The notes under the pieces: generated by a model
What the model was told of the DNA's origin: nothing
Databases searched by the model: none
What the model saw: the letters and a program-made list of their open reading frames with translations, nothing else
In this document: in pieces, positions 34,337-57,682 of the stretch
Numbering within the stretch: the stretch's first letter is position 1
Layout of the letters: every line of letters begins with the position of its first letter
Assembly: GCA_902596975.1 (NCBI GenBank)
Contig: CACJWS010000003.1
Coordinates: 37,914 to 101,913 of the forward strand
Length of the DNA stretch: 64,000 bases
Origin: an uncultured Pelagibacteraceae bacterium
Lineage (GTDB): Bacteria > Pseudomonadota > Alphaproteobacteria > Pelagibacterales > Pelagibacteraceae
Direction of reading: 5' to 3'
Translations under genes and position numbers: made by a program

Positions 34337-35038
34337 TTACTTTAAATTTTTATATTTTTTCATGCAAACTTGAGCTAACAAAAGATTTGGATCAACAAAT
34401 ATTTTAGAGTCTTTTGCTTTTTTAAATGATTTGTATGAAAAAATAGCTATTGGTAGTTCAGTACAACCAAGAATTATTTTTTTACATTTTTTTTTCATTA
34501 AAAATTTAACTGCTGGTCTTAAAGCTTTTTCAGCATCTTTTACTTTACCTTTTTTTACATATTTAATAGCAGTATTTACTGAACTTTTTTGCAATCTTTC
34601 ACTTGGACTTATCAAATTATAATTTTTTTCAAAATACTTATGATAGATTTTTGTGTCTAAAGTAGCTTCAGTGCTTAATAATCCAATAGTTGAATTTTTC
34701 TTAAATTGTTTTTGTGTATTTAAATATACCTCTTTTGGCATACTTAGAAATGGCACGTTTATTTTTTTTTGAATATCTTCATGCCAGTAATGTGCTGTGT
34801 TACAAGGCATTACAATAAACTTGCATTTATTTTTTTCCAGCATTCGACAACCAGCAATTAATTCTTTTAAAACATTTTTGTATTGCTTTAAATTCTCTGC
34901 TCTTCGCGGTGTATTTGATTTATTATAAAGGACAAACATTGGATATTTTTGATCTAATTTTCCTCTGTTTAATTTTGCTAGCTTGTCACAAAAGTCTAAG
35001 CCCGCTTGAGTTCCCATGCCACCTAATATTCCAATCAT
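34337..35038 (-). CDS. Aspartate/glutamate/hydantoin racemase family protein (aspartate racemase-like)
   Basis: GILGGMG N-terminus and two catalytic-Cys motifs, MPCNTAH and GCTELP. Confidence 0.8.
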   Translation of the reverse strand: MIGILGGMGTQAGLDFCDKLAKLNRGKLDQKYPMFVLYNKSNTPRRAENLKQYKNVLKELIAGCRMLEKNKCKFIVMPCNTAHYWHEDIQKKINVPFLSMPKEVYLNTQKQFKKNSTIGLLSTEATLDTKIYHKYFEKNYNLISPSERLQKSSVNTAIKYVKKGKVKDAEKALRPAVKFLMKKKCKKIILGCTELPIAIFSYKSFKKAKDSKIFVDPNLLLAQVCMKKYKNLK

Positions 35039-36293: not shown

Positions 36294-36908
36294 ATGTCTT
36301 TCCTTTTTTTAGGTTTTTTGACGGGCTTAACATTAATTTTTGCAATAGGACCTCAAAATGTTTTTGTAATAGAGCAAGGACTAAAGAAACAATATATATT
36401 TTTAGTTTGCTTAGTCTGTGCATTATCTGATTTGATTTTAATTTTCTTAGGTATCTTTTTATTTAATTATTTTTCTAATTATTTTAATAATGTAGTGGAG
36501 CTGATTTTAAATATACTTTTAATTATTTTTTTATCTTTTTTTATTTATGGAAAAATTAAAGAAATATTTAAATTTAAATCTTTAGAATTCAAAAATAATG
36601 TCGTAGCGCAGAGCTCATTTAATATCTTTATTAAGACCTTAGGTTTTACATATTTAAATCCTCACGTATATTCTGATACAGTATTTTTTTTAGGAAATTT
36701 CTCAAAATCCTTTAATATTGAAAACAAAATTTACTTTGGAATAGGCGCTTCTATAGCTTCTTTTTTATTTTTCTTTTCTTTAGGATACTTATCTAAGATT
36801 TTTTCAGACAAATTAAATAATAGAAGCTTTTGGAAATACATAAATATTTTTATTATAATATTTATGTCAGGTATAGTTTTTTACATTATTAGAGATATTA
36901 TTTATTAA
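36294..36908 (+). CDS. LysE/ArgO family amino-acid exporter
   Basis: 204 aa. GPQNVFVIEQG N-terminal motif typical of LysE/ArgO. Confidence 0.75.
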   Translation: MSFLFLGFLTGLTLIFAIGPQNVFVIEQGLKKQYIFLVCLVCALSDLILIFLGIFLFNYFSNYFNNVVELILNILLIIFLSFFIYGKIKEIFKFKSLEFKNNVVAQSSFNIFIKTLGFTYLNPHVYSDTVFFLGNFSKSFNIENKIYFGIGASIASFLFFFSLGYLSKIFSDKLNNRSFWKYINIFIIIFMSGIVFYIIRDIIY

Positions 36909-37557
36909 AGATTTTTTTTGATAATTTATTAACCTTTAGATGGTTCCCATCAAATCCGTATTGAGTGTGATATTTTCCAGGAAATGCAACACATTTTATA
37001 TCTGCACTTAAAGCAGAATTTAAACTTTCTTCTGTATCTTCAATTGCCACACATTCGTCTGAGTTAATATTCAAGTATTTTAAAGCATAATTATAAATAT
37101 CGGGATATGGTTTTTCTCTTAATATGAATTCATTATTGCCGATAAAATCAAAATCTTTTTTTTCAATTCTTCCTCTTAACGAGTTAAAAATAGAATTGAT
37201 ATTGTTACTCGTTGTTGAGCTAGCAAGCCCAATTTTTATTTTGTTCTTTTTGCAAAATTGAATTATTTCTTTTACACCGTCTCTAGGCTCAACTTTGTGT
37301 TTGTTTAAATATTCATTAAAAATTTTGGTTTTTAAATTTCTTATTTTTTTTCCGTCTATTTCAACACTAGTATCTTTTGCGTAATCATTGATTCTCGTAG
37401 TTCCACCTGATTTTGACAGTAGTTTTCTGTATATATCTTCATCCCAAAACCAGTCTAATCCACTTATTTTAAAAGCTTCATTAAATGCATCTCTTTGAAG
37501 ATCTGATGTCTCAGCTAAAGTTCCAATAGAACCAAATAAAACAGCTTTGTAACTCAT
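36898..37557 (-). CDS. HAD-superfamily (CbbY/beta-PGM-like) protein with a degenerate motif I
   Basis: Start at 37557 (TAATG overlap with the upstream permease stop). Motif II LASSTT, motif III K in REKPYPD, motif IV AIEDTEES. Motif I reads LFGSIGT instead of hhhDxDGT. Confidence 0.7.
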   Translation of the reverse strand: MSYKAVLFGSIGTLAETSDLQRDAFNEAFKISGLDWFWDEDIYRKLLSKSGGTTRINDYAKDTSVEIDGKKIRNLKTKIFNEYLNKHKVEPRDGVKEIIQFCKKNKIKIGLASSTTSNNINSIFNSLRGRIEKKDFDFIGNNEFILREKPYPDIYNYALKYLNINSDECVAIEDTEESLNSALSADIKCVAFPGKYHTQYGFDGNHLKVNKLSKKIFNK

Positions 37558-38438
37558 TATCCCTTCACAGCACCAGCTGTTAATCCACTGATGACTTGTC
37601 TTTGGAAAAACATAACTAACATAAATAAAGGAGCAGTAGCTGAAACAACTGCTGAAACAGCCCACATCAAATTACCTTCATGTTGATTTGTTCCAAGATA
37701 ACTTTGAATTTTGGGTACCATAGTATGATTTTCCTGATTTAATAAAAGAGCTGTCACTGTAAAATCATTATACGCAAGCATTAAACTAAATAATCCAGCT
37801 GTTATTACTCCAGGCCACATAACTGGCATAATGATATGTCTAAATGCTTGAAAATAAGAACAGCCATCAATTAAAGCACTTTCATCAAGTTCTTTAGGAA
37901 CAGTTTTAAAAAATGAATACAATAACCACAAAGTAAATGGTTGATTTATTGCAACAAGGACAACGATGGTCGTCGGTAGTATTCCCCAAATTTGTAATTG
38001 AAAAAACGGAAATAAATAACCAGAGACTAATGTAATATGAGGCATTGCTCTAAAAATTAATGCTGCAATTAAAATCCAAAATGCATAATTTCTTGTAGAT
38101 CTAGATAAAGCATAAGCTCCTAAAGTCCCGAGGAACAGAGAAATGGTTACAACAAAAAATGTAACTATAACTGTATTCCTTGATGCCTTCCAAAACTCTC
38201 CTTCAGTCCAAGCTTGACTATAAGCATCTGTTGTAAACTTTCCTCCAGTTTCTAACAATGTATTGAATGCTGTGATAGCGTACCACCAGTCAGCTCTTGA
38301 AAAAAAGTCAGCTCTTACCTTAAATGACCCCCAGAAAGTCCAAATAAAAGGAAAGCATGCAACCAAAAGCCAAACTATTATAAAGGTTGTATTAAAAATT
38401 TTTAAAGCATTTGATCTTTTATCAAGTCCGTATTCCAT
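37557..38438 (-). CDS. Carbohydrate-type ABC transporter permease (MalG/UgpE-like)
   Basis: Six-TM permease with EAA loop ESALIDGCSYFQAFRHIIMP. Confidence 0.9.
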   Translation of the reverse strand: MEYGLDKRSNALKIFNTTFIIVWLLVACFPFIWTFWGSFKVRADFFSRADWWYAITAFNTLLETGGKFTTDAYSQAWTEGEFWKASRNTVIVTFFVVTISLFLGTLGAYALSRSTRNYAFWILIAALIFRAMPHITLVSGYLFPFFQLQIWGILPTTIVVLVAINQPFTLWLLYSFFKTVPKELDESALIDGCSYFQAFRHIIMPVMWPGVITAGLFSLMLAYNDFTVTALLLNQENHTMVPKIQSYLGTNQHEGNLMWAVSAVVSATAPLFMLVMFFQRQVISGLTAGAVKG

Positions 38439-39467
38439 TTATCTCGCTGTCCTAAATTCCTTCCATGTTCTTATTAAAACTGGTGCTAAAAGTATGGCTA
38501 TCCCAACAATCGTCATCATCGAGGTGGCTGCGGCCGAACCAAATAATATTACTTCCTCATTAACGAGGTTATCATAAATTAACCAAGATAAAGATTGAGC
38601 ACTTCCTTCAGCACTGAAACCAATTATAGGCTCAAAAACTCTAAAATTATCCATCAATGAAATAAGAGCAACAAATGTAACTACAGGATAAATATGAGGC
38701 AAAACAATATGTCTTACTCTCTGCCATCTTGATGCTCCATCAATAATAGCTGCTTCAACAGGTTCTTGAGGAACAGTTTGTAAAGCTGCATAAAATACTA
38801 CAAAAGCAAATGGTGAATGGTGCCAAATTCCATAAATTATTATAGTTATCCAAGTAAGAGTTTTTGAGGATTTTAACGATAAATAAGGGTCATCCATTAA
38901 CATCTGCAAATTTGCACCAATAATTCCTTCTGCATCTATCATCCAAAATAAAACTAAAGAACCTACCAATGGGGTAACAATCATCGGCAATATGGTTCCA
39001 AATATTAATGGTCCTCTAATTCTTCTAGTTACTGCATTAAGACTTAAAGCAATTATAAAACCTAAAAGTAAGACGTTAGGCGTCACAAACAAGCAATAGG
39101 TTAAAGTAAAAATTAGAGCCTTGTAAAAGGGTAGGTTGGTAACTTGATCTACAAATTCCCCAAAACTATTTGTTTCATTCCAAAATTTTCCAATTTCTTC
39201 TATTGCAAGATGATTTCTATCTACATAAGTCCCAAATCCATTGAATTTTCCTAAAGGCTTTTCTTCACGAATTTTTGAAGTTTTTTCTTGGTCAACAACT
39301 ATAGAAACTGTACATCCAAAAGGATCACATTTTTTTACTTCCTTAACAACTTGGTCGTGCTGCGCATAAAATGATTGTATCCCTGTTGAAATAATAGGAA
39401 GACCTATAAATAAAATCATTGCCAATCCAGTTGGCAAGAAAAACCAAAAAAAAGTTTTGTTAGGCAT
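38439..39467 (-). CDS. Carbohydrate-type ABC transporter permease (MalF/UgpA-like) with enlarged first periplasmic loop
   Basis: EAA loop EAAIIDGASRWQRVRHIVLP. Zero-nt spacer to the next permease. Confidence 0.9.
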   Translation of the reverse strand: MPNKTFFWFFLPTGLAMILFIGLPIISTGIQSFYAQHDQVVKEVKKCDPFGCTVSIVVDQEKTSKIREEKPLGKFNGFGTYVDRNHLAIEEIGKFWNETNSFGEFVDQVTNLPFYKALIFTLTYCLFVTPNVLLLGFIIALSLNAVTRRIRGPLIFGTILPMIVTPLVGSLVLFWMIDAEGIIGANLQMLMDDPYLSLKSSKTLTWITIIIYGIWHHSPFAFVVFYAALQTVPQEPVEAAIIDGASRWQRVRHIVLPHIYPVVTFVALISLMDNFRVFEPIIGFSAEGSAQSLSWLIYDNLVNEEVILFGSAAATSMMTIVGIAILLAPVLIRTWKEFRTAR

Positions 39468-39476
39468 TAATGTAAT

Positions 39477-39500
39477 AAGTGGGGATTTTCATCCCCACTT
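39477..39500 (-). terminator. Perfect 9-bp stem-loop between the SBP gene and the first permease gene (attenuator/stabiliser, no U-tract)
   Basis: Plus strand reads aagtgggga-ttttca-tccccactt. It sits 12 nt after the SBP stop and 9 nt before the permease ATG. Confidence 0.5.
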
Positions 39501-39512
39501 AAAATTTATTGA

Positions 39513-40733
39513 TTATAGAAAGCCTTGTTCTTTTGCTTTACTCATGTAAGCTGCTTCCACATCTTTTAAAGCTTGTTCTGCTGACTCTTTACCTTGTAAA
39601 AATTCAACAATCTCACTTCCTAATGCACCATGCATTAAACCCATTTGTGGTAACATTGGATATGGTTTAGCTTTCATTTTAACAGCTTCGATAACTCCAA
39701 TTGATTTTGGTCCAGGCTTAAAACCTTCAATTAACCAAACAGCTTGATCCGCTGCATCTGCAACCATCTTTTTGTTAGCAGCTGCGTGTGCCAAAGCTCT
39801 AAATGTTGCTTCAGCATCAGCGTCAGATCTATTTTTTGCTAACGTGAAACCATCCCACCATAAAGTCGCTGCTGGTATGTTTCCTCCAGCAACCGTTGCT
39901 GGTCCAGTTAATTTAGTTGCAGCTGTAATTTTTGCATCACCATCATCATCAAGCAATGTTCCTGATCTTGATGCCCAAAGAGTCATTAATGCAACATTTC
40001 CAGATTCCCATTCAACTTTAATAGCTTCACTATCGTGAGTTAAATAATCTGGGTTACTTAAACCTGCCAATTTTTTTAGCATATTTAATGTTGCCACACC
40101 TTTTGCATTGTTAATGCTTGGTTGAGCAGTTCCTGCTTTAAAGAATTCTCCTCCATGTCCAATGTACATGTTAACGAATTCTTCTGCTAAATTCCAACCA
40201 GCTTTGTATGCTGCTGCGTAAGGATATTGCATTTTACCAGATGCTCTTATTTTTTCTGATGCCGCAACAACTTCCTCATATGTTTTAGGAACAGCTATAC
40301 CCAATTCTTTTAAAACATCTTCCCTGTAATATAAGTGCTGAGTATTTGCCATAAAAGCAACTGCCATTATTTTTCCATCAATTGTTATCAATTGAGAGTC
40401 TTGTATTCCTTTTCCATATTTCTTAACAAGATCATCAAGTGGTCTAATTAAGTCTTGGTTCATCAAAGGAACTATAGAGCTATTTGCTGCAATTCTTGCA
40501 GAAAACTCTGATGGATTTGCAGTTAGAGCTGGCACAGCAATTTTATTGTGCTCAGATGAGTGTGTGACTTTAAAATCCGCACTTCCTTTACATCCTTTAG
40601 CTGTTTCCACGAAAGTTCTTAAAGCTGGAAAATCATTAGCTAAAATATTTATTGATCCACTCTTAATGTTACAATCTGCGTAAGCAGAAGTTCCAAAAAG
40701 AAGAAACAATAAAGATATTAATATTTTTTTCAT
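39513..40733 (-). CDS. ABC transporter substrate-binding protein, family 1 (sugar/polyol/glycerophosphodiester type), secreted
   Basis: Start at 40733 (GAGGGA RBS 7 nt upstream). Signal peptide MKKILISLLFLLFGTSAYA. Ala-rich 406 aa SBP. Confidence 0.85.
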   Translation of the reverse strand: MKKILISLLFLLFGTSAYADCNIKSGSINILANDFPALRTFVETAKGCKGSADFKVTHSSEHNKIAVPALTANPSEFSARIAANSSIVPLMNQDLIRPLDDLVKKYGKGIQDSQLITIDGKIMAVAFMANTQHLYYREDVLKELGIAVPKTYEEVVAASEKIRASGKMQYPYAAAYKAGWNLAEEFVNMYIGHGGEFFKAGTAQPSINNAKGVATLNMLKKLAGLSNPDYLTHDSEAIKVEWESGNVALMTLWASRSGTLLDDDGDAKITAATKLTGPATVAGGNIPAATLWWDGFTLAKNRSDADAEATFRALAHAAANKKMVADAADQAVWLIEGFKPGPKSIGVIEAVKMKAKPYPMLPQMGLMHGALGSEIVEFLQGKESAEQALKDVEAAYMSKAKEQGFL

Positions 40734-40806
40734 ATTTGTTTCCCTCATTAAATTTAAATTTATGGGTGAAAGGATATATATTCCTTAGGGAATTTAAAAG
40801 TAGTTT

Positions 40807-41934
40807 TTAAATCGCATTTGACGCAAGCTCTGCACCTGCGACCAAAGATTCAAATTTCTTGTAAACAATATTTTCATCAACATTTCCAAAGCCCGCAAAA
40901 GTACTAAATCCACAATCACTTCCAGCCATCAATTGATCTTTATCAATTACTTTTGAATACTGAATTATTCTATTTTTTACTAACTCTTCATGCTCTATGA
41001 AGTTTGAGGTTGAGTCTATTACACCAGGAACTATTACTTTGTCATTAGGAAGTTTAATATTCTCAAAAACCTGCCATTCATGAGCATGTCTTGGGTTCGA
41101 GGCTTCAATTAAATAAGTTTGGATATTTGCTTTTAAAGCAATAGGTAATATTTTTTCTAATCCAATATCGTGAATATGTGGTCCTTCATAATTTCCCCAG
41201 CAGATATGCATTCTCAACTTAGAGGCATCGATATCTTTGATTGCTTCATTAAGACATTCGATTTGTTTTTCAGCTCTTACTAAAAATTCTTCATCTGATA
41301 CATTTTTAAAAGTCATATGTCTTGCAAGTGCAAGATCTGGGCAATCAATTTGCAATAATAAATCATTTTTTGTTATTTCATCGTATTCAGTTTTCATCAT
41401 TTTTGATAATTCCTCTAAATACTTATCGTCATTTTTATAGAATTTGTTTGGAAGGAAATTTGAAATTACTCCTGGTGATGCAGAGTTTATAAATCCTTGA
41501 GAATGGTTATTTTTTTTTAATGCAGATTTTAAATTACTGATATCTTTAGTAAGAGACTTAGTATCTTTGATTTTTAAATCAGCAGTACAACATGGTCTTG
41601 TATAAGTAGGTGTGCCTCCTGATTTTGCAATTTTTTCTTTATATGATGGAAAATCATCTAAGTCTTTAGGAGCTCTTCTCTCGCTTTGACCACTAAAGCC
41701 ATGTAATCGATCCTTGACGTAGGTAGCGTAACTTATTTTTGACATTTCACCATCACTTATAATGTCAATTCCGATATCAATTTGTTTTTTTACAATTCTG
41801 TTTACGTCTTCTTCAATTATCTTATCAAGTTCTCCTTGATCAAATAATTCATTTTTATCTTTTTTAAAAAGTATCTCAGATAGCTTTTTTGATCTTGGTA
41901 GACTTCCAACATGTGTGGTTTTAATTTTATACAT
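40807..41934 (-). CDS. Cobalamin-independent methionine synthase-like (MetE C-terminal-domain-only, UROD/MetE superfamily) zinc enzyme
   Basis: TTHVGSLPRS N-terminus. Zn-ligand motifs MHICWGN and AGSDCGF. About 375 aa, so it lacks the N-terminal folate-side barrel of full-length MetE. Confidence 0.75.
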   Translation of the reverse strand: MYKIKTTHVGSLPRSKKLSEILFKKDKNELFDQGELDKIIEEDVNRIVKKQIDIGIDIISDGEMSKISYATYVKDRLHGFSGQSERRAPKDLDDFPSYKEKIAKSGGTPTYTRPCCTADLKIKDTKSLTKDISNLKSALKKNNHSQGFINSASPGVISNFLPNKFYKNDDKYLEELSKMMKTEYDEITKNDLLLQIDCPDLALARHMTFKNVSDEEFLVRAEKQIECLNEAIKDIDASKLRMHICWGNYEGPHIHDIGLEKILPIALKANIQTYLIEASNPRHAHEWQVFENIKLPNDKVIVPGVIDSTSNFIEHEELVKNRIIQYSKVIDKDQLMAGSDCGFSTFAGFGNVDENIVYKKFESLVAGAELASNAI

Positions 41935-41939
41935 AGTTT

Positions 41940-42899
41940 TTACATTAATATTTGTTTCCAAATAGCCACTTCATCAAACAATACCCATTCTCTTATTATT
42001 TTATCATCTCTTAATTCTGCATGATTTATACCCATTATAAATAAATCTTTGTCAGTCTTTTTCCCAAATTCTTCACTGTCTTTAGAGTGCTTACCACTTA
42101 AAAACCATCTGATGGTAGCTTTTTGATTGTTATTTTTTTCATCCAATGATGCAACATGTTCGATTGTAAACTTTATTTCAGAAAATATATTTTTTAAAGA
42201 GCTCCAATATTTAATTATATCTTCACTGCCATTTCCAACTTTATTACTTGGCCAAAATAGACTGGCTGCTCTATCATAATCTTCAAAATCATAATCATTA
42301 TTAAATATTTTCTTTAAAATATTGGAATATATATAACCTGATGAAACTTCATTAACTTTTACTGGAGTATAATCTGACTTTTTATCAGAAGATCTATTAA
42401 AAACTTTGATAGCTTTAGATACACCACCTTCTTTATCAATTAAATGCCTTGCAAATTGTTCAGGTGTATAACCTAGCTGTCGAACCATTGCACCTTGATC
42501 TCTCACAATCCACTCATCATAAACCTGATTATTTTTACATGCACAGTCAGCTATAACTCTATAAACAATTTTGTTTCCTGTTTTTTTTCCGTAATACCCG
42601 TCATTTAAATGTGTAGCTTTGCTCAGAATTCTGTGAGATGAATGATATCCCTCATCGTCATTTCCACTCCAAATTACATCTTCACCTAGTAATTGTCTGT
42701 CTGGAAATTCGTCTAAAGTTTTATAAGTTGCATCAATAACAGGTTTAAAACCATAGGTTATTCCAAAGGGTGATCTTACGGGGATATTCTCTGAATAGTA
42801 TTTGGATATCGACTCGACATCTTTCCTTTCCCAAATTTGTTTTGTAATTTTTAAAATGTAATCAGTTAAATTTTTATAATTACTTTCAAATCCTTTCAT
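41940..42899 (-). CDS. Tandem SnoaL-like (ester-cyclase/NTF2-fold) two-domain protein
   Basis: 319 aa. N-half shows IWERKDVESISKYYSENIPV...LDEFPD; C-half shows a second NTF2-like pattern (KIIREWVLFD). Confidence 0.5.
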   Translation of the reverse strand: MKGFESNYKNLTDYILKITKQIWERKDVESISKYYSENIPVRSPFGITYGFKPVIDATYKTLDEFPDRQLLGEDVIWSGNDDEGYHSSHRILSKATHLNDGYYGKKTGNKIVYRVIADCACKNNQVYDEWIVRDQGAMVRQLGYTPEQFARHLIDKEGGVSKAIKVFNRSSDKKSDYTPVKVNEVSSGYIYSNILKKIFNNDYDFEDYDRAASLFWPSNKVGNGSEDIIKYWSSLKNIFSEIKFTIEHVASLDEKNNNQKATIRWFLSGKHSKDSEEFGKKTDKDLFIMGINHAELRDDKIIREWVLFDEVAIWKQILM

Positions 42900-43837
42900 T
42901 AGATCTGACTAACAAAATTTAAAATACTATTTTCTGAATTATTACAAGAGATATCTATTTTGCTACTCAAAGGAACTGAAAAAGTATCCCCTTTTTCTAA
43001 TTTTATATTTGAGTTTCCTATTATTATTTCCCAATTACCTTCTTGAGCAAAAAGAACGGTAGGCTTTATACATTCAATATCTTTAATTTCACCAGATATA
43101 GAATTTAGTGTTGTTAAATTAAATCCAGTATCTTGTTTGATTGAAGGTTCATAAGTTTTTTTATTAAATTTGTTTCCTAATACTTGATATAATTTAATAC
43201 CATTAATTTCATCGCTGATATTGTTTTGTTTATTTCTATAAATATTTTTCTCTAATTCTTCTGGCAAATAATTATCAAATCTTTCTAATTCATCTTTGGT
43301 GATAGGCTCTATCATTTTTCTTCCTTTAGGTACTTCAACCTTTTTTAAATCTATTAACGAATTATCATCAAGCAATGCCATACCAGTCTCTTTTGCTTTT
43401 TTTAGAATTTCTGGAACCCATGTTATTATACCAGGATCATCTCCACCTAATACAACGAACATTAAACTTTCTTTATCTCCAACATTTTCAAATGCTCTGA
43501 ACATATTTGTAGGCATTGAGATTATATCGCCAGCTTCTAATATTGTTTCTTGTTTTCCATCAGCACCCCAATAAAATCTCCATCTACCTGAGTAAATTAC
43601 AAACACCTCAGCCGTAGTATGACTGTGAAGACCAGATCCATTTTTTGGCATGGCACTCACAGCTCCTAAATTATACCCATGTAAAGACTGTATTTTTATT
43701 ATTTGTTTGGCGTCTTCAGCAACTCCACGTCCAATAATTGTATAATTTTTTCTTTCTTTATGACCTTCTAGCCTCCCTTCCACAAAAGGAAGACTGCTTG
43801 GAACCAGTTCATTAAATTTTGCCAATCTGTCAATCAT
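42899..43837 (-). CDS. Bicupin protein (N-terminal cupin with metal-ligand motif, C-terminal cupin degenerate)
   Basis: GLHSHTTAEVFVIYSG...GDIISMP in the first barrel. The second barrel (EGNWEIIIGNSNIKLEKGDTFSVP) has no His ligands. Confidence 0.6.
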   Translation of the reverse strand: MIDRLAKFNELVPSSLPFVEGRLEGHKERKNYTIIGRGVAEDAKQIIKIQSLHGYNLGAVSAMPKNGSGLHSHTTAEVFVIYSGRWRFYWGADGKQETILEAGDIISMPTNMFRAFENVGDKESLMFVVLGGDDPGIITWVPEILKKAKETGMALLDDNSLIDLKKVEVPKGRKMIEPITKDELERFDNYLPEELEKNIYRNKQNNISDEINGIKLYQVLGNKFNKKTYEPSIKQDTGFNLTTLNSISGEIKDIECIKPTVLFAQEGNWEIIIGNSNIKLEKGDTFSVPLSSKIDISCNNSENSILNFVSQI

Positions 43838-43878
43838 ATTCTTGTTATTTATGTCTATTTAAATATAAATTGCAACTT

Positions 43879-44955
43879 ATGCAAATAGAACAATTTGATA
43901 CAGGACTTAAAAATCAAAATAATTTTCAAGAATTAAAAATCACAGCTGAAGAAAATAAACAAAATAAACAAATAGTTAGAAATTATTTGAGCAACATATA
44001 CAAGCTTGGATCATCAAATATAGAAGAAAATTTGAACAAATATTTTAGCGAAGATGTAAGCATTAAATGTTTTTTTCCAATAAATGAATTTAAAGGATTG
44101 TCTAATTTTAGAGATAAATTTTGGACTCCACTATTTGATGCGTTTCCTGATTTAGAGAGAAGAGAACAAGTTGTTATAGGTGGAGCTTTTAGAGATAAAT
44201 TCCAAGTTGGGACAATATCTACCTTATCAGGAATTTTTAAAAAGAAATGGCTTAATGTAGAGCCAAATTTTAAAATGGTAAATTTAAGATGCTGTGAGAT
44301 ACACGAATTAAAAAATGATAAAATTATTGAAAGTCACATATTAATAGACACAATAAACTTTCTAAATCAAGTAGGGAAGTTTCCAATAAATCCTTCAAGA
44401 GGGTATGAGGGCATTTGGATGACACCAATAAACTCAGATGGTGTAAATTTTTACGAAAACAATTTAGATGTTTCAAAAGCCACTCTAGATCAATCTCTTA
44501 CTATGCAAAGAAGTTTAAATATTAAACCAGAATTAGAGGCATCATCTGACTCTGATTTAAAGGAAAAACTTCTTAATCACCCACAAAAAGATTTTTGGCA
44601 TGAAAAAATGATTTGGTATGGACCTAGCGGTATAGGAACAGCTCGCTCTTTGGAAGGTTTCATTGATCATCATCAACTTCCTTTTAGAAAAACATTTAAA
44701 GAAAGAAATTACTGGGAATTAGGACATTATTGTGAATTAGGAGATGGTAAATTTTCACTTACTGCTGGATGGCACAGTATACAAGCAGTCTATGATTCAA
44801 ATGATTGGCTAGGATATAATTCAAACAAAAATAAAGTAACCATGAGAGTTATGGATTTTTACCATCATGATGAGGGAAAAATTAGAGAAAATTGGGTACC
44901 GATAGATCTAGCGCATATATTAAGTCAAATCGGAATTAATATTTTTAAATCTTGA
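43879..44955 (+). CDS. Tandem SnoaL-like (ester-cyclase/NTF2-fold) two-domain protein
   Basis: NKQIVRNYLSNIY...AFPDLER in the N-half and KIRENWVPIDL at the C-terminus. ATG at 43879 preferred, because the 43819 start would overlap the divergent gene. Confidence 0.5.
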   Translation: MQIEQFDTGLKNQNNFQELKITAEENKQNKQIVRNYLSNIYKLGSSNIEENLNKYFSEDVSIKCFFPINEFKGLSNFRDKFWTPLFDAFPDLERREQVVIGGAFRDKFQVGTISTLSGIFKKKWLNVEPNFKMVNLRCCEIHELKNDKIIESHILIDTINFLNQVGKFPINPSRGYEGIWMTPINSDGVNFYENNLDVSKATLDQSLTMQRSLNIKPELEASSDSDLKEKLLNHPQKDFWHEKMIWYGPSGIGTARSLEGFIDHHQLPFRKTFKERNYWELGHYCELGDGKFSLTAGWHSIQAVYDSNDWLGYNSNKNKVTMRVMDFYHHDEGKIRENWVPIDLAHILSQIGINIFKS

Positions 44956-44968: not shown

Positions 44969-46255
44969 CTAATTTGAATAACCATATTTTCGAAGCCTCA
45001 CATCACCAGTTCTAGCATGAGCTTCCATACCTTCATATCTAGAAATTCTAGCTGCTGCAGCACCAACTTCTTTGTTAGATTCTTTATTCATCTTTTGGTA
45101 TGTAACGGTTTTAATAAATTTTCCAACGTATAAGCCTCCGGTATATTTTCCTGCACCTTTTGTTGGTAGAATATGATTTGGTCCAGAGCATTTATCTCCA
45201 TATGCAACTGTTGTTTCTTCACCTAAAAATAAAGAACCATAATTTTTAAGATTTTTTAAATACCAGTCTAAGTTTTCAGCTTGAACCTCCAAATGTTCAG
45301 GCGCATATTCATCGCTCACTTTCATCATTTCTTCTTTGGTATCACACATAATTACTTCTCCATAATCTCTCCATGCAGCATCAGCATTATTTCTGTTGTG
45401 TTCAGGTAACTCTTGAATAATTTCTGGAACTCTTTTCATTACATAATCACATAAAGACTTATCAGTAGTGTAGAGCCACGCTGGAGAGTCAGGACCATGT
45501 TCAGCCTGTCCAACTAAATCGTAAGCGATTATTTCTTTATCAGCTGTATGATCTGCAATTATGCCTATTTCGGTTGGTCCAGCAAATAAATCAATTCCAA
45601 CTTTTCCAAATAAAATCCTTTTAGACTCTGCTACAAATTTATTTCCAGGTCCAACAATCATATCTACTTCTGGATTACCAAAGCAACCATAAGCAAGCGC
45701 ACCAATTGCCCCTATACCACCAATGTTCATAATTACATCTGCACCACAAAGATTAGCTGTATAAATTATAATTGGGTTAGCACCATTCGAATCTTTCGGT
45801 GGACTTGTTGCAATTACATTCTTTACTCCAGCGACTTTTGCAGTTGTCACACTCATTATAGCAGAGGCGATATTATTATATCTTCCACCAGGAACGTAAC
45901 ACCCAACAGTATTTACAGGTATTAATTTTTGTCCTGCTATTAAACCAGGCGATAATTCAACTTCTGAGTCTTTTCCGAGATTTTCTAGTTGATGTTCTGC
46001 AAACTTTCTTACTCTTTCATGAGAGAACTGAATATCATCTTTAATCTTTTGATCTAAAGTTTTATTTATATCCTCAATTTTTTCTTTGCTAACAATTATA
46101 TCACCTTCATAATTATCAAATTTTTTTAAAATATCTTTAACCCCTTGGTCCTTTGTTTTTTCTAAATCTTTTAAAATTGAACTTACTTTAGTTCTTGTTT
46201 CATCTTCACCTGTAAATGCAGTTTTTTCAGCTTTTTTTATATAAGTAATTGCCAT
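44969..46255 (-). CDS. Histidinol dehydrogenase family NAD-dependent 4-electron alcohol dehydrogenase (HisD paralogue; HpsN-like candidate)
   Basis: GQAEHGPDS, YAPEHLEV, GDKCSGPNHILPT. No other his genes adjacent. Confidence 0.8.
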   Translation of the reverse strand: MAITYIKKAEKTAFTGEDETRTKVSSILKDLEKTKDQGVKDILKKFDNYEGDIIVSKEKIEDINKTLDQKIKDDIQFSHERVRKFAEHQLENLGKDSEVELSPGLIAGQKLIPVNTVGCYVPGGRYNNIASAIMSVTTAKVAGVKNVIATSPPKDSNGANPIIIYTANLCGADVIMNIGGIGAIGALAYGCFGNPEVDMIVGPGNKFVAESKRILFGKVGIDLFAGPTEIGIIADHTADKEIIAYDLVGQAEHGPDSPAWLYTTDKSLCDYVMKRVPEIIQELPEHNRNNADAAWRDYGEVIMCDTKEEMMKVSDEYAPEHLEVQAENLDWYLKNLKNYGSLFLGEETTVAYGDKCSGPNHILPTKGAGKYTGGLYVGKFIKTVTYQKMNKESNKEVGAAAARISRYEGMEAHARTGDVRLRKYGYSN

Positions 46256-46314: not shown

Positions 46315-47226
46315 TTAATCTAAAGCAACAACAGCTGCAGCTATTGAAGCAAGTCTTGCTGTCGCATCATCTGACCTACTTGTTATAACAACAGGCACTT
46401 TACCTCCAACAACTACGCCTGCTGCACATGCTCCCATAAAATAAATCATCATTTTTACAAGCGCATTCCCAGTTTCGACATTTGGAACTAATAATACATC
46501 GGCCTCTCCAGCAACTATATTCTCAATTCCCTTAATTGAAGCAGATTTTTTTGAGATGCTATTATCAAATGCCAAAGGTCCAAATATATCAGCATTAAAA
46601 TTTTCTTTACTTGCCAATTCAGTTAATTCTTTAGCTTCAACCGAACTCTGTACACTATCAATTACTTCTTCTGTTGCTGAAAGGACAGAAATCTTTGGTC
46701 TTGGAATATTAATTCTATGACTAAAATCTATAACATTTCTTAAAATATGCATTTTAGTTTTTAGGTTAGGAGAAACATTCAATGCTCCATCGGTTATGAT
46801 TAATGGTTTATCATCTTTTTGTAATGTCATATGCCAAATATGACTTAATCTTGTTTTTCCAATTAATTTATATTCTCTTTTAAGAACTTCTTTCATCAAT
46901 ATATCAGTATGAATATGTCCTTTTACAATAATTTTTACTTTATCTTCAGATGCAAGTTTTGTTGCAATTCCAGCTGTATTGTTTTCAACTGGCTCATTGA
47001 TTATTTCAAAATTTGATATATCAAATTTAAGCTCATCTGCGCATTCTTGTATTTTTTGTTTATCACCTATTAATATTGGGGTAATCAATTTTTCTGAGAC
47101 AGCATCCATTACCGACATCATTGGTAATTTTTTGCCTGCATTTACAATTGCTGCTTTTACACCCCTTTTTTGATGGGCTATATTAAGTAGATTAACAGGG
47201 CAAACTGTAGATTTATCAGATAACAT
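46315..47226 (-). CDS. pta: Phosphate acetyl/butyryl-transferase family protein
   Basis: 303 aa. VKGHIHTD, ITDGALNV, LSATEEV and a C-terminal Ala-rich helix typical of PTA_PTB. Confidence 0.75.
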   Translation of the reverse strand: MLSDKSTVCPVNLLNIAHQKRGVKAAIVNAGKKLPMMSVMDAVSEKLITPILIGDKQKIQECADELKFDISNFEIINEPVENNTAGIATKLASEDKVKIIVKGHIHTDILMKEVLKREYKLIGKTRLSHIWHMTLQKDDKPLIITDGALNVSPNLKTKMHILRNVIDFSHRINIPRPKISVLSATEEVIDSVQSSVEAKELTELASKENFNADIFGPLAFDNSISKKSASIKGIENIVAGEADVLLVPNVETGNALVKMMIYFMGACAAGVVVGGKVPVVITSRSDDATARLASIAAAVVALD

Positions 47227-47310
47227 ATGAGTTTAAATATTTGTTATGGTTCTAAATATCAATATTTTTTATTACGTTCGATATAAAAATAGTTTAAAAT
47301 TGAATAAACG

Positions 47311-48159
47311 ATGGAGATAGTTACAAAAATTGCACCTATAGCGTTAGCACTTATAATGTTAGGTCTGGGATTGGGCTTATCAACTAGAGATTTTTTAAGA
47401 GTTATAAATAATCCAAAAGATTTTACAGTCGGAATAATTTGTCAATTAATCCTTCTTCCAATCGTCGCTTATATTTTACTTTTAATATTAAGATTACCAG
47501 TTGAATTAGCTTTAGGATTAATGATTATTGCTGCTGCTCCTGGAGGAGTAACATCAAATGTCTTAACAAAATTTGCAAATGGAGATGTTGCATTATCTAT
47601 TTCGTTAACAGCAGTAGGTAGTTTAATTAGTATTTTTTCTGTTCCATTTATTGTTTTTTCTTCAGCAAAATTATTAGGTGTAACTGATTTATCCTCAGAT
47701 ATTACGATGACTGGTATTGCTTTTAAAATGGCACTAGTTGTAACTGTGCCAGTAATTCTAGGAATGATAATTAGAAGATTTGCTGAAAACTTTATTTCTT
47801 CTAATATTAATATTGTAAATAGAATTACAGGAATTTTGTTTATTGTTGTATTTGCAGCAATATGGATTGAGGAAAGAGAAAATATAATATCATACTTAGG
47901 TCAAGCGGGTTTAGCTGTTTTAATATTAAACGTAGTCATGATGACTTTGGCATTTTACATTGCAAAAGGTTTTGCAACTGGAATACCACAAAGAAAATGT
48001 ATTTCTTTAGAATGTGGATTACAAAATGGAACTTTAGCTGTATTTGTAGCAACACAAATTTTCAATGATGTCGCTTATATGGTTCCCACCGCTGCTTACG
48101 CATTAATAATGTATATAACTGGATTTATATTTATATATATTCTTAAAAATTCTAATTAA
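47311..48159 (+). CDS. Bile acid:sodium symporter (BASS) family transporter
   Basis: 282 aa polytopic protein. GLGLGLSTRDF and AAAPGGVTSNV motifs. Confidence 0.85.
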   Translation: MEIVTKIAPIALALIMLGLGLGLSTRDFLRVINNPKDFTVGIICQLILLPIVAYILLLILRLPVELALGLMIIAAAPGGVTSNVLTKFANGDVALSISLTAVGSLISIFSVPFIVFSSAKLLGVTDLSSDITMTGIAFKMALVVTVPVILGMIIRRFAENFISSNINIVNRITGILFIVVFAAIWIEERENIISYLGQAGLAVLILNVVMMTLAFYIAKGFATGIPQRKCISLECGLQNGTLAVFVATQIFNDVAYMVPTAAYALIMYITGFIFIYILKNSN

Positions 48160-49114
48160 GATTTATTTGATTGTAAGTTCTTTTTATAAAAACATTTATT
48201 GATTTTAAATTTTCATCTTGGATTATCGACATATCTTTAAAATTTTGTTTGCTGACATCAAAATTTATCAATTTATTTTTGTCTAAAGAAATAAATTTAC
48301 TTTTAGTTAATTTCTTGATTTTTCTTACTACTGTTGGTCTTGGTATTCCTGTTATTTCAGAAATAGACATTGCATTAATTCCTTTTATTTTTTTATTAAT
48401 AATTTTATCTCTCCATTTATCTAAATAACTATCAACTCCTTTAAGTTGCCTTCCAATTTTTGAATTATTATTCAAAATTATAGTTGCTAAAATAGTAAAT
48501 ATTTCCATATCACCAAAATAATTTTTCCACCTTAAGCAGTAAGGGAATAAAAATTTATAAAATTGATACCAGCAAAATGAGAAATTATGTTTAATTAAGT
48601 TATTAATTTCATTACTGGACATTTCGTTTTTTATTACTTTTTCTTCTTTTAAAATTTGACTAAAAACAGATAAAAGTGCGCATATATTTTTTAATGTATC
48701 ATTTGGCTGTGTTGAATTGTATGCACTTCTATCTATTGTAATCTTCTTGCCTTTTTTTTTAATTATTCCTTTTTTTTCTAGGGATATAACTTTTCTTCTG
48801 ACACTTTCTTTTGGTATTTTAAGATCCTTTGATATTCTTATAAGGTTAATTTTCTCAATCTCTAATGTTTTATCCTTATAAAAATCATTGAAAGTAATAT
48901 TTAAATTATTTCGTCTGTAAAAATCAAACTGCTTACTAATCAAATAAATTAAAATCGTGTAAGTATCTATATCTTTAAACACTTTATAAGCACCGATTGT
49001 CCATTCAGACATAAGTTTTAAAAAAAAAGGACTTAAAATATCAAAATGATTTTTGAAAATTTTATCGATCAGTTCATCATCTAGTTCTGAATTTACACTT
49101 GGTAGCTGCTTCAT
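48152..49114 (-). CDS. Hypothetical protein made of two tandem winged-helix (wHTH) DNA-binding modules
   Basis: Internal duplication visible by eye: INLIRISKDLKIPKESVRRKVISLEKKG versus INAMSISEITGIPRPTVVRKIKKLTKSK, and DTYTILIYLI versus DMEIFTILATI. Very Lys/Asn/Ile-rich. Confidence 0.5.
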   Translation of the reverse strand: MKQLPSVNSELDDELIDKIFKNHFDILSPFFLKLMSEWTIGAYKVFKDIDTYTILIYLISKQFDFYRRNNLNITFNDFYKDKTLEIEKINLIRISKDLKIPKESVRRKVISLEKKGIIKKKGKKITIDRSAYNSTQPNDTLKNICALLSVFSQILKEEKVIKNEMSSNEINNLIKHNFSFCWYQFYKFLFPYCLRWKNYFGDMEIFTILATIILNNNSKIGRQLKGVDSYLDKWRDKIINKKIKGINAMSISEITGIPRPTVVRKIKKLTKSKFISLDKNKLINFDVSKQNFKDMSIIQDENLKSINVFIKRTYNQINLN

Positions 49115-49124
49115 AATGTATCAA

Positions 49125-49171
49125 AACCCAATTTGAACAATTTTAAAACTTGAGTCAACCCATTTTGAACA
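49125..49171. repeat. Two 15-nt direct repeats (14/15 identical) 32 bp apart in the divergent promoter region
   Basis: aacccaatttgaaca (49125-49139) and aacccattttgaaca (49157-49171), each followed by a tTAAAA-like extension. Confidence 0.6.
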
Positions 49172-49214
49172 GTTAAAATCTGTAAAATTTTTTACTTTAT
49201 GTTTTAATTATTTA

Positions 49215-49421
49215 ATGAGTACTGAAAGCTTAAACAGAACATCTAATATTGAAATACCTGAAAAAAAACGAAGAGTAATTCGAATGTCCCCTCGTAAAGT
49301 AAATATAGATGTTCTAAAGAAACGAGTTATCACTGAAAAGAAAAAAGAGGCACTTCAGTCAAAAATAATAATACTTTCAGTCTGTTTATCTATCGGAATA
49401 CTAGGTTATTTTGCAGGTTAA
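49215..49421 (+). CDS. Hypothetical small basic protein with a C-terminal transmembrane anchor
   Basis: 68 aa. The N-terminal 45 aa are Lys/Arg-rich; the C-terminus is IIILSVCLSIGILGYFAG. No family recognised. Confidence 0.35.
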   Translation: MSTESLNRTSNIEIPEKKRRVIRMSPRKVNIDVLKKRVITEKKKEALQSKIIILSVCLSIGILGYFAG

Positions 49422-50422
49422 CTATTTAAGAGAATATCTAAATCCTTTTTAATATTTTTTGGAATTTTTATAGATTTTTTGGAGTTTGTTTTTGTTCTTA
49501 AATACTTTTGCTCACCGGGATAAAATATTTTTTGTCCTTTTAAATTAGGTATTTTTTTTATTCTTTTAATATTTTTTTTTATCTCTTTTTTATAATCTTT
49601 AACAAATAGATTGTCTTTAAATGCTAAAAATAAGTGACCGATATTTTGTGGCCCAGAGAAATCATCAAATGGGTCTTTTACTTTGCCACCATGATTACTT
49701 CCAACAAATACTCCAGTTAAAATATCTACCATCCAGGCTAATCCAGATCCTCTAAATCCAGCTATTGGAAGTTGTACCCCAGCAAGAGCTTCTTTTGCAT
49801 TTGTAGTTGGTTTACCAAATTTGTTTAAAGCAACTCCATATGGTATTTTTTTTCCTAACTTTTCTGCAATCCTAATTTTACCTCTATTAATCATAGACAT
49901 TGATGTATCTAGTATAAATGGAACCTTGCTATTAGTTTGAGTTCCAAAACATATTGGATTAGTTCCAAAGACTGATTTTTTCCCTCCAAAAGGCGCAATA
50001 GCAGGAGGAGCATTTGTAAATGCGAAAGTTATTAAATTTTTTTTAACCGCTTGCTCGACGTAGTATCCAGATAGACCGTAATGTCCGCTGTTTTTTACAG
50101 CAACAAACCCAATCCCTGTTTTTTTTGCATTTTGTATAGTTTTTTTAATAGCCTCATCTGCTGCAACAAAACCTATAGAATTATCAGCATCAATTATTGA
50201 TATAGATTTTGATATATTTTTTACAGTAATTTTAGGTCTCGGATTAATGACTTTTTTTGAGATTCTTTCACAATACATTTTTAAACGAGACAATCCATGT
50301 GAAGGCGCACCTACAAGCTCTGCATTGATAATTGCATTTGCGCAAATTATAGAGTGTTTTCTACTTAATTTAAAATTAGTAAAAATTTTAATAATTAAAT
50401 TTTTAAGCTCTTTTTCATTCAT
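49418..50422 (-). CDS. Ldh_2 family (type-2 malate/L-lactate/sulfolactate/ureidoglycolate) dehydrogenase
   Basis: 334 aa. GAPSHGLSR, NSGHYGLSGYY, GTNPI motifs. Confidence 0.85.
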   Translation of the reverse strand: MNEKELKNLIIKIFTNFKLSRKHSIICANAIINAELVGAPSHGLSRLKMYCERISKKVINPRPKITVKNISKSISIIDADNSIGFVAADEAIKKTIQNAKKTGIGFVAVKNSGHYGLSGYYVEQAVKKNLITFAFTNAPPAIAPFGGKKSVFGTNPICFGTQTNSKVPFILDTSMSMINRGKIRIAEKLGKKIPYGVALNKFGKPTTNAKEALAGVQLPIAGFRGSGLAWMVDILTGVFVGSNHGGKVKDPFDDFSGPQNIGHLFLAFKDNLFVKDYKKEIKKNIKRIKKIPNLKGQKIFYPGEQKYLRTKTNSKKSIKIPKNIKKDLDILLNS

Positions 50423-53818: not shown

Positions 53819-54873
53819 TGAAAAAAGCAGAAGTAAAATTTGAAAATATTACAAAAAAATTTAATGAGACTGTTGCTGTTGATAATGTGAGTTGTACTTT
53901 TGAAGCAGGAACACTGACTACATTACTAGGTCCTTCTGGATGCGGAAAAACCACTTCTTTAAGAATTATTGCTGGTCTAGAAAGAGCTACTAGTGGCAGA
54001 ATTTTAGTAGAAAATGAAGATGTAACATTATTACCAGCAACAGACAGAGATGTATCTATGGTATTCCAATCTTATGCTTTGTTTCCACACATGAGTGTGC
54101 TTGAAAATGTATCTTATGGTTTGAAGATGATTAATGTTCCAAAAGAAGAATTTACAGAAAAGTCATTAGAAACTCTTAAGTTAGTTAATTTAGAAGGTTA
54201 CGAAAATAGGATGCCTTCAGAGCTATCGGGGGGTCAGCAACAAAGAGTTGCGGTTGCAAGAGCAATTGTGCTGAAACCTAAAGTTTTACTCTTTGACGAG
54301 CCTTTATCTAATTTAGATGCAAAATTAAGAAGACAAGTAAGAGAGGATATTAGAGAAATTCAACAAAAACTTGGAGTAACTACAATTTATGTAACTCATG
54401 ATCAAGAGGAAGCATTAGCAATTTCTGACAAAGTAATTGTAATGAACAATGCTATTATTGCTCAACAAGGTAGCCCAAAAGAATTGTATAACTTTCCTAA
54501 AACTAAATTTGTAGCCAACTTCATAGGAGACGCAAATGTTGTTAAAGCTAAAATCATTAAACAAAATAATAATGTTTACGAGATTCAATTAGCAGAAATG
54601 AAAATTAATATAAAAAGTGATCAAAAATTAGAAAGTTCAGTTTCCGTCTCTTTAAGACCAGAAAAAATAACTATTTCAAAAAGTCCTGAAGAAAACTCAA
54701 TACATGCATCTGTTAATAATGCGTCATTCGTTGGAAATAGTTATCAATATATAGTTAATTCAAAAGTCGGTAAGATTTACGTAGTTTCTAGCGATACCAA
54801 TGAAATATTTAATGTTGGAGAAAACGTTTATTTAAATTTCGACGAAAAAGAATTACGCTTACTCGACGATTAA
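53818..54873 (+). CDS. ABC transporter ATP-binding protein (PotA/FbpC type with C-terminal TOBE-like domain)
   Basis: GPSGCGKTT, LSGGQQQRVAVARA, LLFDEPLS. The ATG overlaps the permease stop. Confidence 0.9.
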   Translation: MKKAEVKFENITKKFNETVAVDNVSCTFEAGTLTTLLGPSGCGKTTSLRIIAGLERATSGRILVENEDVTLLPATDRDVSMVFQSYALFPHMSVLENVSYGLKMINVPKEEFTEKSLETLKLVNLEGYENRMPSELSGGQQQRVAVARAIVLKPKVLLFDEPLSNLDAKLRRQVREDIREIQQKLGVTTIYVTHDQEEALAISDKVIVMNNAIIAQQGSPKELYNFPKTKFVANFIGDANVVKAKIIKQNNNVYEIQLAEMKINIKSDQKLESSVSVSLRPEKITISKSPEENSIHASVNNASFVGNSYQYIVNSKVGKIYVVSSDTNEIFNVGENVYLNFDEKELRLLDD

Positions 54874-57600: not shown

Positions 57601-57628
57601 TAGCTGACTTTATATAAAATATTTACTT

Positions 57629-57661
57629 AAAAAAATAGGCACCAATAAAATTGGCGCCTAT
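57629..57661 (-). terminator. Rho-independent terminator/attenuator after the SBP gene
   Basis: Minus-strand RNA reads auaggcgccaau-uuu-auuggugccuau with one G-U pair (an A-C mismatch on the other strand), followed by seven U. Confidence 0.7.
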
Positions 57662-57682
57662 TTAATTATTCTAATCTTTAAA

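Follow-up and report, generated by a model that had tools for sequence, protein, structure and literature searches.

What does an enzyme with the zinc-binding core of the methionine synthase MetE do when its neighbours are a cupin, two SnoaL-type proteins and a sugar-type importer? This question is raised by a gene cluster in a 64,000-nucleotide stretch of contig CACJWS010000003.1 from an uncultured Pelagibacteraceae (SAR11) bacterium, here called the window, which has a G+C content of ~30% and encodes proteins 97-99% identical to ‘Candidatus Pelagibacter’ sequences. The cluster encodes the MetE-core zinc enzyme, a bicupin and two tandem SnoaL/NTF2-like proteins (SnoaL-A and SnoaL-B), and lies next to genes for an ATP-binding cassette (ABC) importer of the CUT1 family. 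We find the same gene set in several phyla, and with a probability of about 0.4 we consider the cluster to be a pared-down SAR11 form of a catabolic module that is conserved in many bacteria and serves to break down an imported polar metabolite, sugar- or cyclitol-like in nature. Whether core-MetE homologues of aerobic marine bacteria do anything has been asked in the literature (PMC12478193), and the module would bear on the question of their function.

The genes are tightly linked in the window. Bicupin, SnoaL-A and MetE-core are translationally coupled: the TAA stop codon of the bicupin gene overlaps the ATG of SnoaL-A by 1 nt (TAATG), and the TAA of SnoaL-A is followed by a 5-nt spacer (AAACT) and then by the MetE-core ATG. 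SnoaL-B is divergent, with its ATG (43879) separated from the bicupin start by a 41-bp gap, while the genes for the substrate-binding protein (SBP), the two permeases and a HAD-IA hydrolase lie downstream of MetE-core on the minus strand. An earlier note on this DNA, written from the sequence alone, had described these coordinates, the overlap, the spacer and the divergent gap together with the domain content and the metal motifs, all of which we confirm. Could genes with unrelated roles nevertheless have come together by chance? Genes are tightly packed in SAR11, and short spacers alone are weak proof of a shared function. We scanned one genome per GTDB species using an alignment of the MetE-core protein and 20 diverse relatives as the query, and based all conservation counts on the best 80 loci, ~15 of them SAR11-like and 65 from other lineages. 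Partners were detected by tblastn of the window proteins against these loci, within 8 kb of the MetE-core gene; for companion genes, all open reading frames (ORFs) of the loci were clustered and representatives annotated. SnoaL-A and bicupin are both found near MetE-core in 15/15 SAR11-like loci and 36/65 others, and at least one of the two in 46 of the 65. SnoaL-B is present at 47, a HisD-like gene at 44 and CUT1 transporter genes at 40 of the 80 loci; SnoaL-A, bicupin and MetE-core stand side by side in nearly all gene maps. This synteny rules out chance adjacency, and with the same set recurring in several phyla between variable flanks, we leave a fortuitous arrangement next to no probability. 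The earlier note had staked its interpretation on synteny in other genomes, and its proposed coupling of MetE-core to the cupin, the SnoaL proteins and the importer is borne out by both the junctions and the gene order elsewhere.

The 65 loci outside SAR11 come from SAR116, many Paracoccaceae/roseobacters (among them Ruegeria denitrificans CECT 5091 and HTCC2255), SUP05, Halieaceae, Pseudohongiella, Geminicoccaceae, Granulosicoccaceae, Rhizobiaceae, Hyphomicrobiales, Burkholderiales/Polaromonas, Steroidobacteraceae, Chloroflexota, Acidimicrobiia and Acidobacteriota. The module is carried by some of the most numerous bacteria of the sea (SAR11, SAR116, SUP05, and the RCA and other roseobacters) and therefore probably handles an abundant dissolved metabolite. 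The earlier note had suggested a marine metabolite, but the module is not exclusively marine, as it is also present in genomes of Polaromonas, Burkholderiales, Microvirga and Steroidobacteraceae. Cultured roseobacter isolates make tractable hosts for solving the pathway.

The content of the loci outside SAR11 Ia is what points to catabolism. An RbsR-like regulator of the LacI family occurs at 31 loci, a short-chain dehydrogenase/reductase (SDR) resembling KduD/gluconate-5-dehydrogenase at 25, a MalK-like ATPase at 22 and a PcaD-like alpha/beta hydrolase at 18. There is also an aldolase, either putative and RraA-like (13 loci) or GarL/HpcH-like (7 loci), as well as a fuconolactonase-like amidohydrolase (5 loci), and extra single-domain SnoaL proteins recur. 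In gammaproteobacteria, an SSF symporter and TonB-dependent receptors replace the ABC system. A LacI regulator, a transporter, an SDR, a lactonase and a pyruvate aldolase together make up a catabolic operon of the kind induced by its substrate, here one resembling a sugar or a cyclitol. This extended gene content is consistent with the suggestion in the earlier note of a methyl-transfer or ring-modifying route coupled to import.

What, then, does the MetE-core enzyme contribute? Its sole Pfam domain is Meth_synt_2 (63 bits); the N-terminal Meth_synt_1 domain is absent, and the HICWGN and SDCGF motifs noted earlier are confirmed. The protein scores 42 bits against the classical MetE models TIGR01371 and NF003556 (cut-offs 930 and 541) and stays below every cut-off of the curated short methionine-synthase models (NF003317, NF004875, NF006589, NF002119, NF002272); the highest score reached with any NCBIfam model is 104 bits, where 406 would be required, and another is 72 against 576. 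The family is distinct from both classical MetE and the curated short methionine synthases. It is large, with 654 clusters at 50% identity (E < 1e-30), and its only relatives in the PDB are two uncharacterised proteins, 1YPX from Listeria and 3RPD from Shewanella, and the C-terminal barrel of MetE. In a profile alignment with Thermotoga maritima MetE, the family motifs TTHxGS, DGE and QxDxP fall on Ser411, Glu462 and Asp577, the contacts to the amino-acid end of homocysteine. HxC, the Glu before (A/S)NxRH, and DCGF fall on His618/Cys620, Glu642 and Cys704, the four zinc ligands, in agreement with the earlier description of a lone C-terminal barrel that keeps its zinc site. The zinc and homocysteine motifs are retained in 65-67 of 67 homologues, with DGE, HxCW and DCGF present in all 67. 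Since both the zinc ligands and the homocysteine contacts are conserved, the simplest explanation is that the enzyme has kept the ability to activate homocysteine (or a compound very similar to it) as an alkyl acceptor. A further invariant motif, NPRHxHEW, is peculiar to the family and absent from classical MetE.

Some relatives of the enzyme occur in other settings. The closest non-SAR11 representatives in the 50% library (P0121-P0124) lie in unrelated, uninformative contexts; one of them (P0123, locus L005) is on an apparently eukaryotic contig near WD40, MFS and O-methyltransferase genes. P0162, P0194 and P0257 carry the MetE-core relative as a domain within proteins of 1,600-1,900 aa.

The conserved zinc and homocysteine residues would also fit an anabolic role, in which the enzyme is a folate-independent methionine synthase and the cupin and SnoaL proteins deliver or generate its methyl donor, by analogy with MesD/MesX. 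The core (folate-independent) methionine synthases MesA-D/core-MetE (Price et al. 2021, PMC7857596; Deobald et al. 2020, PMC7005905) resemble the window enzyme in consisting of one C-terminal MetE barrel (~340-390 aa) with conserved zinc ligands (His/Cys/Glu/Cys) and homocysteine residues, and they rely on other proteins for the methyl donor. Classical MetE, in contrast, has ~750 aa and two barrels, including the folate-side Meth_synt_1, compared with the 375 aa and single Meth_synt_2 of the window enzyme. However, the partners in the window are a cupin and SnoaL proteins rather than corrinoid proteins or DUF1852, and the window family has its own NPRHxHEW motif, lies far below all curated short models and, in other taxa, is encoded in operons under LacI control that also contain transporter, lactonase and aldolase genes. 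No DUF1852 (MesX) gene was found next to MetE-core: ORF 41940-42899, for which the earlier note had considered this assignment, matches SnoaL in Pfam, and no B12-binding domain is present among the annotated window ORFs. The lack of DUF1852 and the sub-threshold scores rule out a MesD/MesX-type system. An Rfam search of the whole window gave no family at the gathering score (no tRNA, rRNA or riboswitch), which also excludes control of the cluster by an S-adenosylmethionine (SAM) or other riboswitch and speaks against the anabolic role. Finally, SAR11-like loci are few among the best 80 (~15). We consider the anabolic role improbable. The kinship to Mes families and the methionine-synthase function entertained in the earlier note thus give way to a catabolic context, while its view of a core-MetE acting with partners in an import-linked route is partly supported; we reframe the cluster as a widespread, most likely catabolic module that is not restricted to the sea and is probably not biosynthetic in the manner of Mes.

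How might such a module work? The CUT1 system (in gammaproteobacteria, the SSF symporter with a TonB receptor) would import the compound, and the zinc-bound homocysteine thiolate of the MetE-core enzyme would take a methyl or small alkyl group off the substrate or an intermediate, yielding methionine. The cupin and the two tandem SnoaL proteins might isomerise, (de)hydrate, hydrolyse or open the carbon skeleton, and an HpsN-like dehydrogenase would oxidise a CH2OH group beside a hydroxyl to a carboxylate. In larger genomes, the SDR, the lactonase-type hydrolase and a class-II aldolase (RraA-like or HpcH-like) would complete the route to pyruvate. The direction and chemistry of each step, like the nature of the substrate, are what we infer. 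For the MetE-core step, homocysteine-dependent dealkylation within a catabolic route, most simply demethylation, is our best reading. Its logic would be that of betaine-homocysteine methyltransferase (BHMT), which SAR11 uses as Bhmt in glycine betaine catabolism (PMC12478193). As in BHMT, a zinc-activated homocysteine would demethylate a catabolic substrate and couple its degradation to methionine formation. The two enzymes differ in fold (PF02574 for BHMT, PF01717 for the window enzyme), and the transporter here is of the sugar type (CUT1/SSF), not of the betaine type.

Several points weigh against this picture. The methyl group of an aliphatic ether is not readily transferred, and the donor would therefore need activation, as in an onium compound, an enol ether or an ester. 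The HAD hydrolase has no role in the scheme. The SAR11 Ia version is a minimal set without SDR, lactonase, aldolase or LacI genes, and consequently the window does not reveal the route as a whole; homologues of the LacI regulator, the hydrolase and RraA are absent from its entire 64 kb. About a quarter of the MetE-core homologues lack the partners, so the family is not bound to one pathway; in a neighbour-joining tree, these homologues fall into a few separate branches, such as one of Acidobacteriota. Lastly, the AlphaFold2 (AF2) models of the bicupin and SnoaL-A do not discriminate between functions.

An alternative is that the MetE-core enzyme was recruited to chemistry other than thiol alkylation and, as a zinc-dependent dehydratase, decarboxylase or isomerase, fills the missing sugar-acid dehydratase step. 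The module indeed combines an SDR, a lactonase and an aldolase with no recognisable sugar-acid dehydratase, and the family-specific NPRHxHEW motif could reflect a changed activity. However, invariant homocysteine contacts and a His/Cys/Cys zinc site are hard to explain without an amino-acid thiol as ligand, and we know of no precedent for non-thiol chemistry in the MetE superfamily, which counts against the proposal. We regard it as rather unlikely.

A second set of observations concerns the dehydrogenase. Missing from the gene list of the earlier note is an HpsN-like dehydrogenase, which, itself or in the form of a paralogous subfamily, is part of the conserved set. In the window, the HpsN-type gene (44969-46255) abuts SnoaL-B, with which it is convergent, and in SAR11 Ia it is grouped with a Pta-like gene. 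Its product scores 509 bits against CpHpsN (8V35) compared with ~240 bits against histidinol dehydrogenases (HisD), contains the YAPEHL and GDK motifs and conserves the equivalents of Glu318, His319, Asp352 and Lys353. HpsN is the (R)-2,3-dihydroxypropane-1-sulfonate (DHPS) 3-dehydrogenase (CpHpsN 8V35; PMC11382572), and an L-cysteinolate dehydrogenase has been described as well (PMC12814064); by family, the window protein would share the four-electron oxidation of CH2OH to COOH. The HpsN-specific motif is G-R-Y-A/S-H, whose last residue, His126, binds the sulfonate (PMC11382572). The window protein, unlike HpsN, has GRYNN at this position and so lacks His126, while other SAR11 loci (L012-L014, L020) have the canonical GRYAH. 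At ~30 loci, mostly outside Ia, the HisD-like gene that travels with the module forms a third subfamily with GKFPMV, again without the sulfonate-specific His; it is nearer to HpsN than to HisD and keeps the Glu-His and Asp-Lys pairs and the sulfonate-contacting Lys. In one Hyphomicrobiales locus (L084), a module-type HisD-like gene (GKFPMV) and a canonical HpsN gene (GRYSH) flank a single operon (3584-4891 and 9878-11203). The window gene may substitute for the module's own HisD-like enzyme in SAR11 Ia, although its service to the module is uncertain. For a published SAR11 ‘HpsN’, possibly the orthologue of the window gene, a Km of ~106 mM for R-DHPS was reported (PMC11131964). Because the module-adjacent gene lacks the sulfonate-binding His, DHPS catabolism in SAR11 may be overestimated where HisD/HpsN-family genes of this kind are taken as its marker.

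The dehydrogenase invites a different reading of the whole cluster, as a sulfosugar or C3-sulfonate route. The substrate, either a compound resembling DHPS or a 6-deoxy-6-X sugar (for example sulfoquinovose), would pass through an SDR, a lactonase and an aldolase as in an Entner-Doudoroff (ED) pathway, followed by HpsN-like oxidation of the C3 aldehyde or alcohol, with MetE-core, cupin and SnoaL proteins as the missing dehydratase, mutarotase or desulfonation steps. The adjacent enzyme's HpsN family membership, the proximity of the module enzyme to HpsN with its retained Lys, and the co-occurrence of both types in L084 argue in this direction. The accessory SDR, lactonase and HpcH aldolase mirror the enzymes of the sulfo-ED pathway. 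In addition, the SBP weakly matches the sulfoquinovosyl-glycerol binder SmoF, and the window contains a group of apparent organosulfonate genes (a taurine-type ABC system, a class III aminotransferase, Ald, a Pta-like protein, Ldh_2 and a CuyB-family racemase). However, His126 is missing from both the window protein and the module-linked subfamily, the conserved genes of the module include none for a sulfite exporter, a sulfolyase or a sulfoquinovosidase, and MetE-like, cupin and SnoaL genes go unmentioned in reviews and surveys of how sulfoquinovose and DHPS are degraded. The zinc-thiolate enzyme would also be left without an obvious role. On balance, a sulfonate substrate seems unlikely to us.

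Do the cupin and SnoaL proteins narrow down the chemistry? The Pfam Cupin_2/Cupin_1 matches of the bicupin are confined to the N-terminal barrel, which carries the motif LHSHTTAE, while the second barrel of the SAR11 protein is free of His over its last ~85 residues; the metal-binding first barrel and ligand-free second barrel described earlier are thus both confirmed. The best PDB sequence match of barrel 1 is DddK (E ~1e-4), the SAR11 cupin lyase for dimethylsulfoniopropionate (DMSP), with which it shares the HxHxxxE metal motif. DddK is a single barrel of ~130 aa, unlike the 312-aa bicupin. Relative to the DddK structures 5TFZ and 6A53, His56, His58 and Glu62 are kept, while Tyr64 is replaced by Phe and His96 by Arg. 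The orthologues agree, with HxHxxxE-x-F in 47 of 49 and Arg at the fourth-ligand position in at least 40. The bicupin is therefore a metal-binding cupin, and a DddK-type DMSP lyase is ruled out by the loss of both the catalytic Tyr64 and the fourth metal ligand. Its AF2 model is unusable (predicted local distance difference test, pLDDT, 50.6).

SnoaL-A and SnoaL-B, which are ~24% identical to each other, each match SnoaL/SnoaL_2 over two stretches, well above the Pfam gathering cut-off of 28.4 bits (52.8 for A, 68.6 for B). The AF2 model of SnoaL-A (pLDDT 72, predicted template-modelling score, pTM, 0.72) has two alpha+beta barrels, for which Foldseek returns generic SnoaL-type matches only (SnoaL2, IdmH, AclR; TM ~0.7 per domain, 10-15% identity). 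SnoaL-A is 46-48% identical to its roseobacter orthologues, and the striking conservation of its N-terminal domain between SAR11 and roseobacters suggests that the active site is located there. No polyketide genes provide a context for polyketide cyclases, the surroundings being those of a transporter-linked catabolic operon.

Other arrangements around these genes were also seen. Two loci from SAR11-related single-amplified genomes (L016 and L021) have three extra SnoaL-family genes (334, 379 and 139 aa) between MetE-core and LacI/SBP, giving at least five SnoaL-type proteins at each locus, and CysD/CysNC genes flank L015-L019. In Ruegeria denitrificans (L066), a gene for a SAM-dependent methyltransferase (7391-7993) lies between bicupin and MetE-core, and in a small-genome gammaproteobacterium (L047, 9988-12309), two Peptidase_M19 (renal-dipeptidase family) genes are placed between the alpha/beta hydrolase and a SnoaL gene.

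What could the substrate of a demethylating catabolic module be? Chemically, a methoxy-enone of the gadusol/mycosporine type would be the most coherent candidate, and it makes speculation about a first catabolic pathway for mycosporine-like amino acids, gadusol-type C7 cyclitols or related compounds enticing, even if we give this specific assignment slim odds. In such a route, the SnoaL proteins would strip N-substituents or tautomerise the ring, and MetE-core would move the enol-ether methyl to homocysteine, yielding methionine and a cyclic aci-reductone. The cupin could oxidatively cleave the aci-reductone to 4-hydroxy-4-(hydroxymethyl)-2-oxoadipate, the CH2OH of which would be oxidised by the HpsN-like enzyme. 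An RraA/HpcH aldolase would split the resulting 4-carboxy-4-hydroxy-2-oxoadipate into pyruvate and oxaloacetate. The coherence of the scheme comes from the fact that an enol-ether methyl is an activated donor, that demethylation would give an aci-reductone of the kind cleaved by cupin dioxygenases, and that the final oxidation would give a substrate of RraA-like aldolases. It would also suit an HpsN-like enzyme without the sulfonate-specific His, because HO-CH2-C(OH)-CH2-COO- is a carboxylate isostere of DHPS. If true, it would moreover represent a new methionine-forming reaction in SAR11. A literature search for bacterial mycosporine catabolism found no report. O-methyl sugars and inositols, S-ribosylhomocysteine and betaine-lipid head groups were considered as well; nothing specific speaks for them.

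Among known routes, the closest parallel in the accessory genes is with non-phosphorylative sugar and lower aromatic pathways (sulfo-ED, L-fucose/L-rhamnose, LigI/LigK steps), which share the SDR, the lactonase (alpha/beta or amidohydrolase_2) and the class-II pyruvate aldolase. Unlike these, the module has no IlvD- or enolase-type dehydratase, and nothing in those pathways corresponds to its MetE-core protein, its bicupin or its four or five SnoaL domains. The homarine (hom) operon was rejected for its different gene content (flavin-dependent HomAB, a peptidase and an aldehyde dehydrogenase). To judge from its proteins, the cluster resembles parts of the Mes, BHMT, HpsN, DddK and sugar/aromatic systems and is a member of none. 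In the searchable literature, searches combining SnoaL, cupin, histidinol dehydrogenase, methionine synthase or sulfonate found no paper describing the gene set, which the earlier note had likewise not recognised from any described pathway.

The SBP weakly matches UgpB, NgcE and MalE models, and its best PDB match is 5IAI (41 bits); identity with the characterised SAR11 glucose binder SAR11_0769 is ruled out, 8HQQ not being among the PDB matches. Permease 1 is syntenic with the module in 40 of the 80 loci. Of the parts of a CUT1 importer, an SBP, two MalF/MalG-type permeases and a MalK-type ATPase, the locus encodes the SBP and both permeases, and the operon has no ATPase gene; the sole MalK-like ATPase of the window (53818-54873) belongs to a neighbouring ABC system and shares 42% identity with the ATPase encoded alongside the module elsewhere in SAR11. 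The HAD hydrolase has subfamily-level NCBIfam matches only and recurs in 15 loci, and in SUP05 its gene is placed between bicupin and MetE-core. A hairpin separates SBP and permease 1, a position that would be typical of differential SBP expression in ABC operons. A promoter scan remained at chance level (51 found, 53.9 expected). The features are collected in Table 1.

Table 1. Genes and other features of the cluster and its immediate neighbours, in window coordinates.
Feature	Position	Strand	Remarks
HAD-IA hydrolase (beta-phosphoglucomutase/hexitol-phosphatase-like)	36898-37554	-	HAD_2, 79.7 bits
ABC permease 2 (MalG/UgpE-like)	37557-38438	-	BPD_transp_1
ABC permease 1 (UgpA/MalF-like)	38439-39467	-	BPD_transp_1
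Hairpin, 11-bp perfect stem	39476-39501		from a terminator-like scan; in the 45-nt gap between SBP and permease 1
CUT1-family periplasmic SBP	39513-40748	-	Pfam SBP_bac_1
MetE-core Zn enzyme	40807-41934	-	375 aa from ATG at 41934; distinct PF01717 subfamily
SnoaL-A (tandem SnoaL/NTF2-like protein A)	41940-42899	-	319 aa; Pfam SnoaL, 52.8 bits
Bicupin	42899-43837	-	312 aa; Cupin_2 at residues 64-129; HxHxxxE in barrel 1, barrel 2 ligand-free
SnoaL-B (tandem SnoaL/NTF2-like protein B)	43879-44955	+	358 aa; Pfam SnoaL, 68.6 bits
HpsN-type (DHPS-3-dehydrogenase family) dehydrogenase	44969-46255	-	509 bits to CpHpsN 8V35

The remainder of the window adds a metabolic setting. Beyond the HpsN-type gene, the region 46315-50422 encodes a Pta-like phosphotransacylase, a transporter of the SBF (bile-acid/Na+ symporter) family, a TrmB/Crp-HTH regulator-like protein and an Ldh_2 protein of the ComC/sulfolactate dehydrogenase family, which together with the HpsN-type gene suggests an organosulfonate island. 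Further on (54877-61287), a taurine-type ABC system with an NMT1-like SBP, an ATPase and a long permease stands beside a class-III aminotransferase and an alanine dehydrogenase, the classic tauABC-tpa-ald arrangement. On the other side, just past the LysE and MFS genes bordering the cluster, lies an Asp/Glu racemase-family gene (34337-35038, minus strand), the family to which the cysteate racemase CuyB belongs (PMC12814064). A separate cluster at 77-8571 (plus strand) resembles a non-phosphorylative sugar-acid pathway, with a TctA-family transporter fragment, three SDRs, a ROK kinase, an IlvD/Edd dehydratase, a 3-hydroxyisobutyrate-dehydrogenase-like reductase, a FAH-family hydrolase and an SMP-30 gluconolactonase. 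The region 21477-26276 (minus strand) encodes a beta-hydroxyacid dehydrogenase, a protein of the phosphoenolpyruvate mutase/isocitrate lyase family and a TRAP transporter (DctP/Q/M), and a TauD-family dioxygenase is found at 12537-13640.

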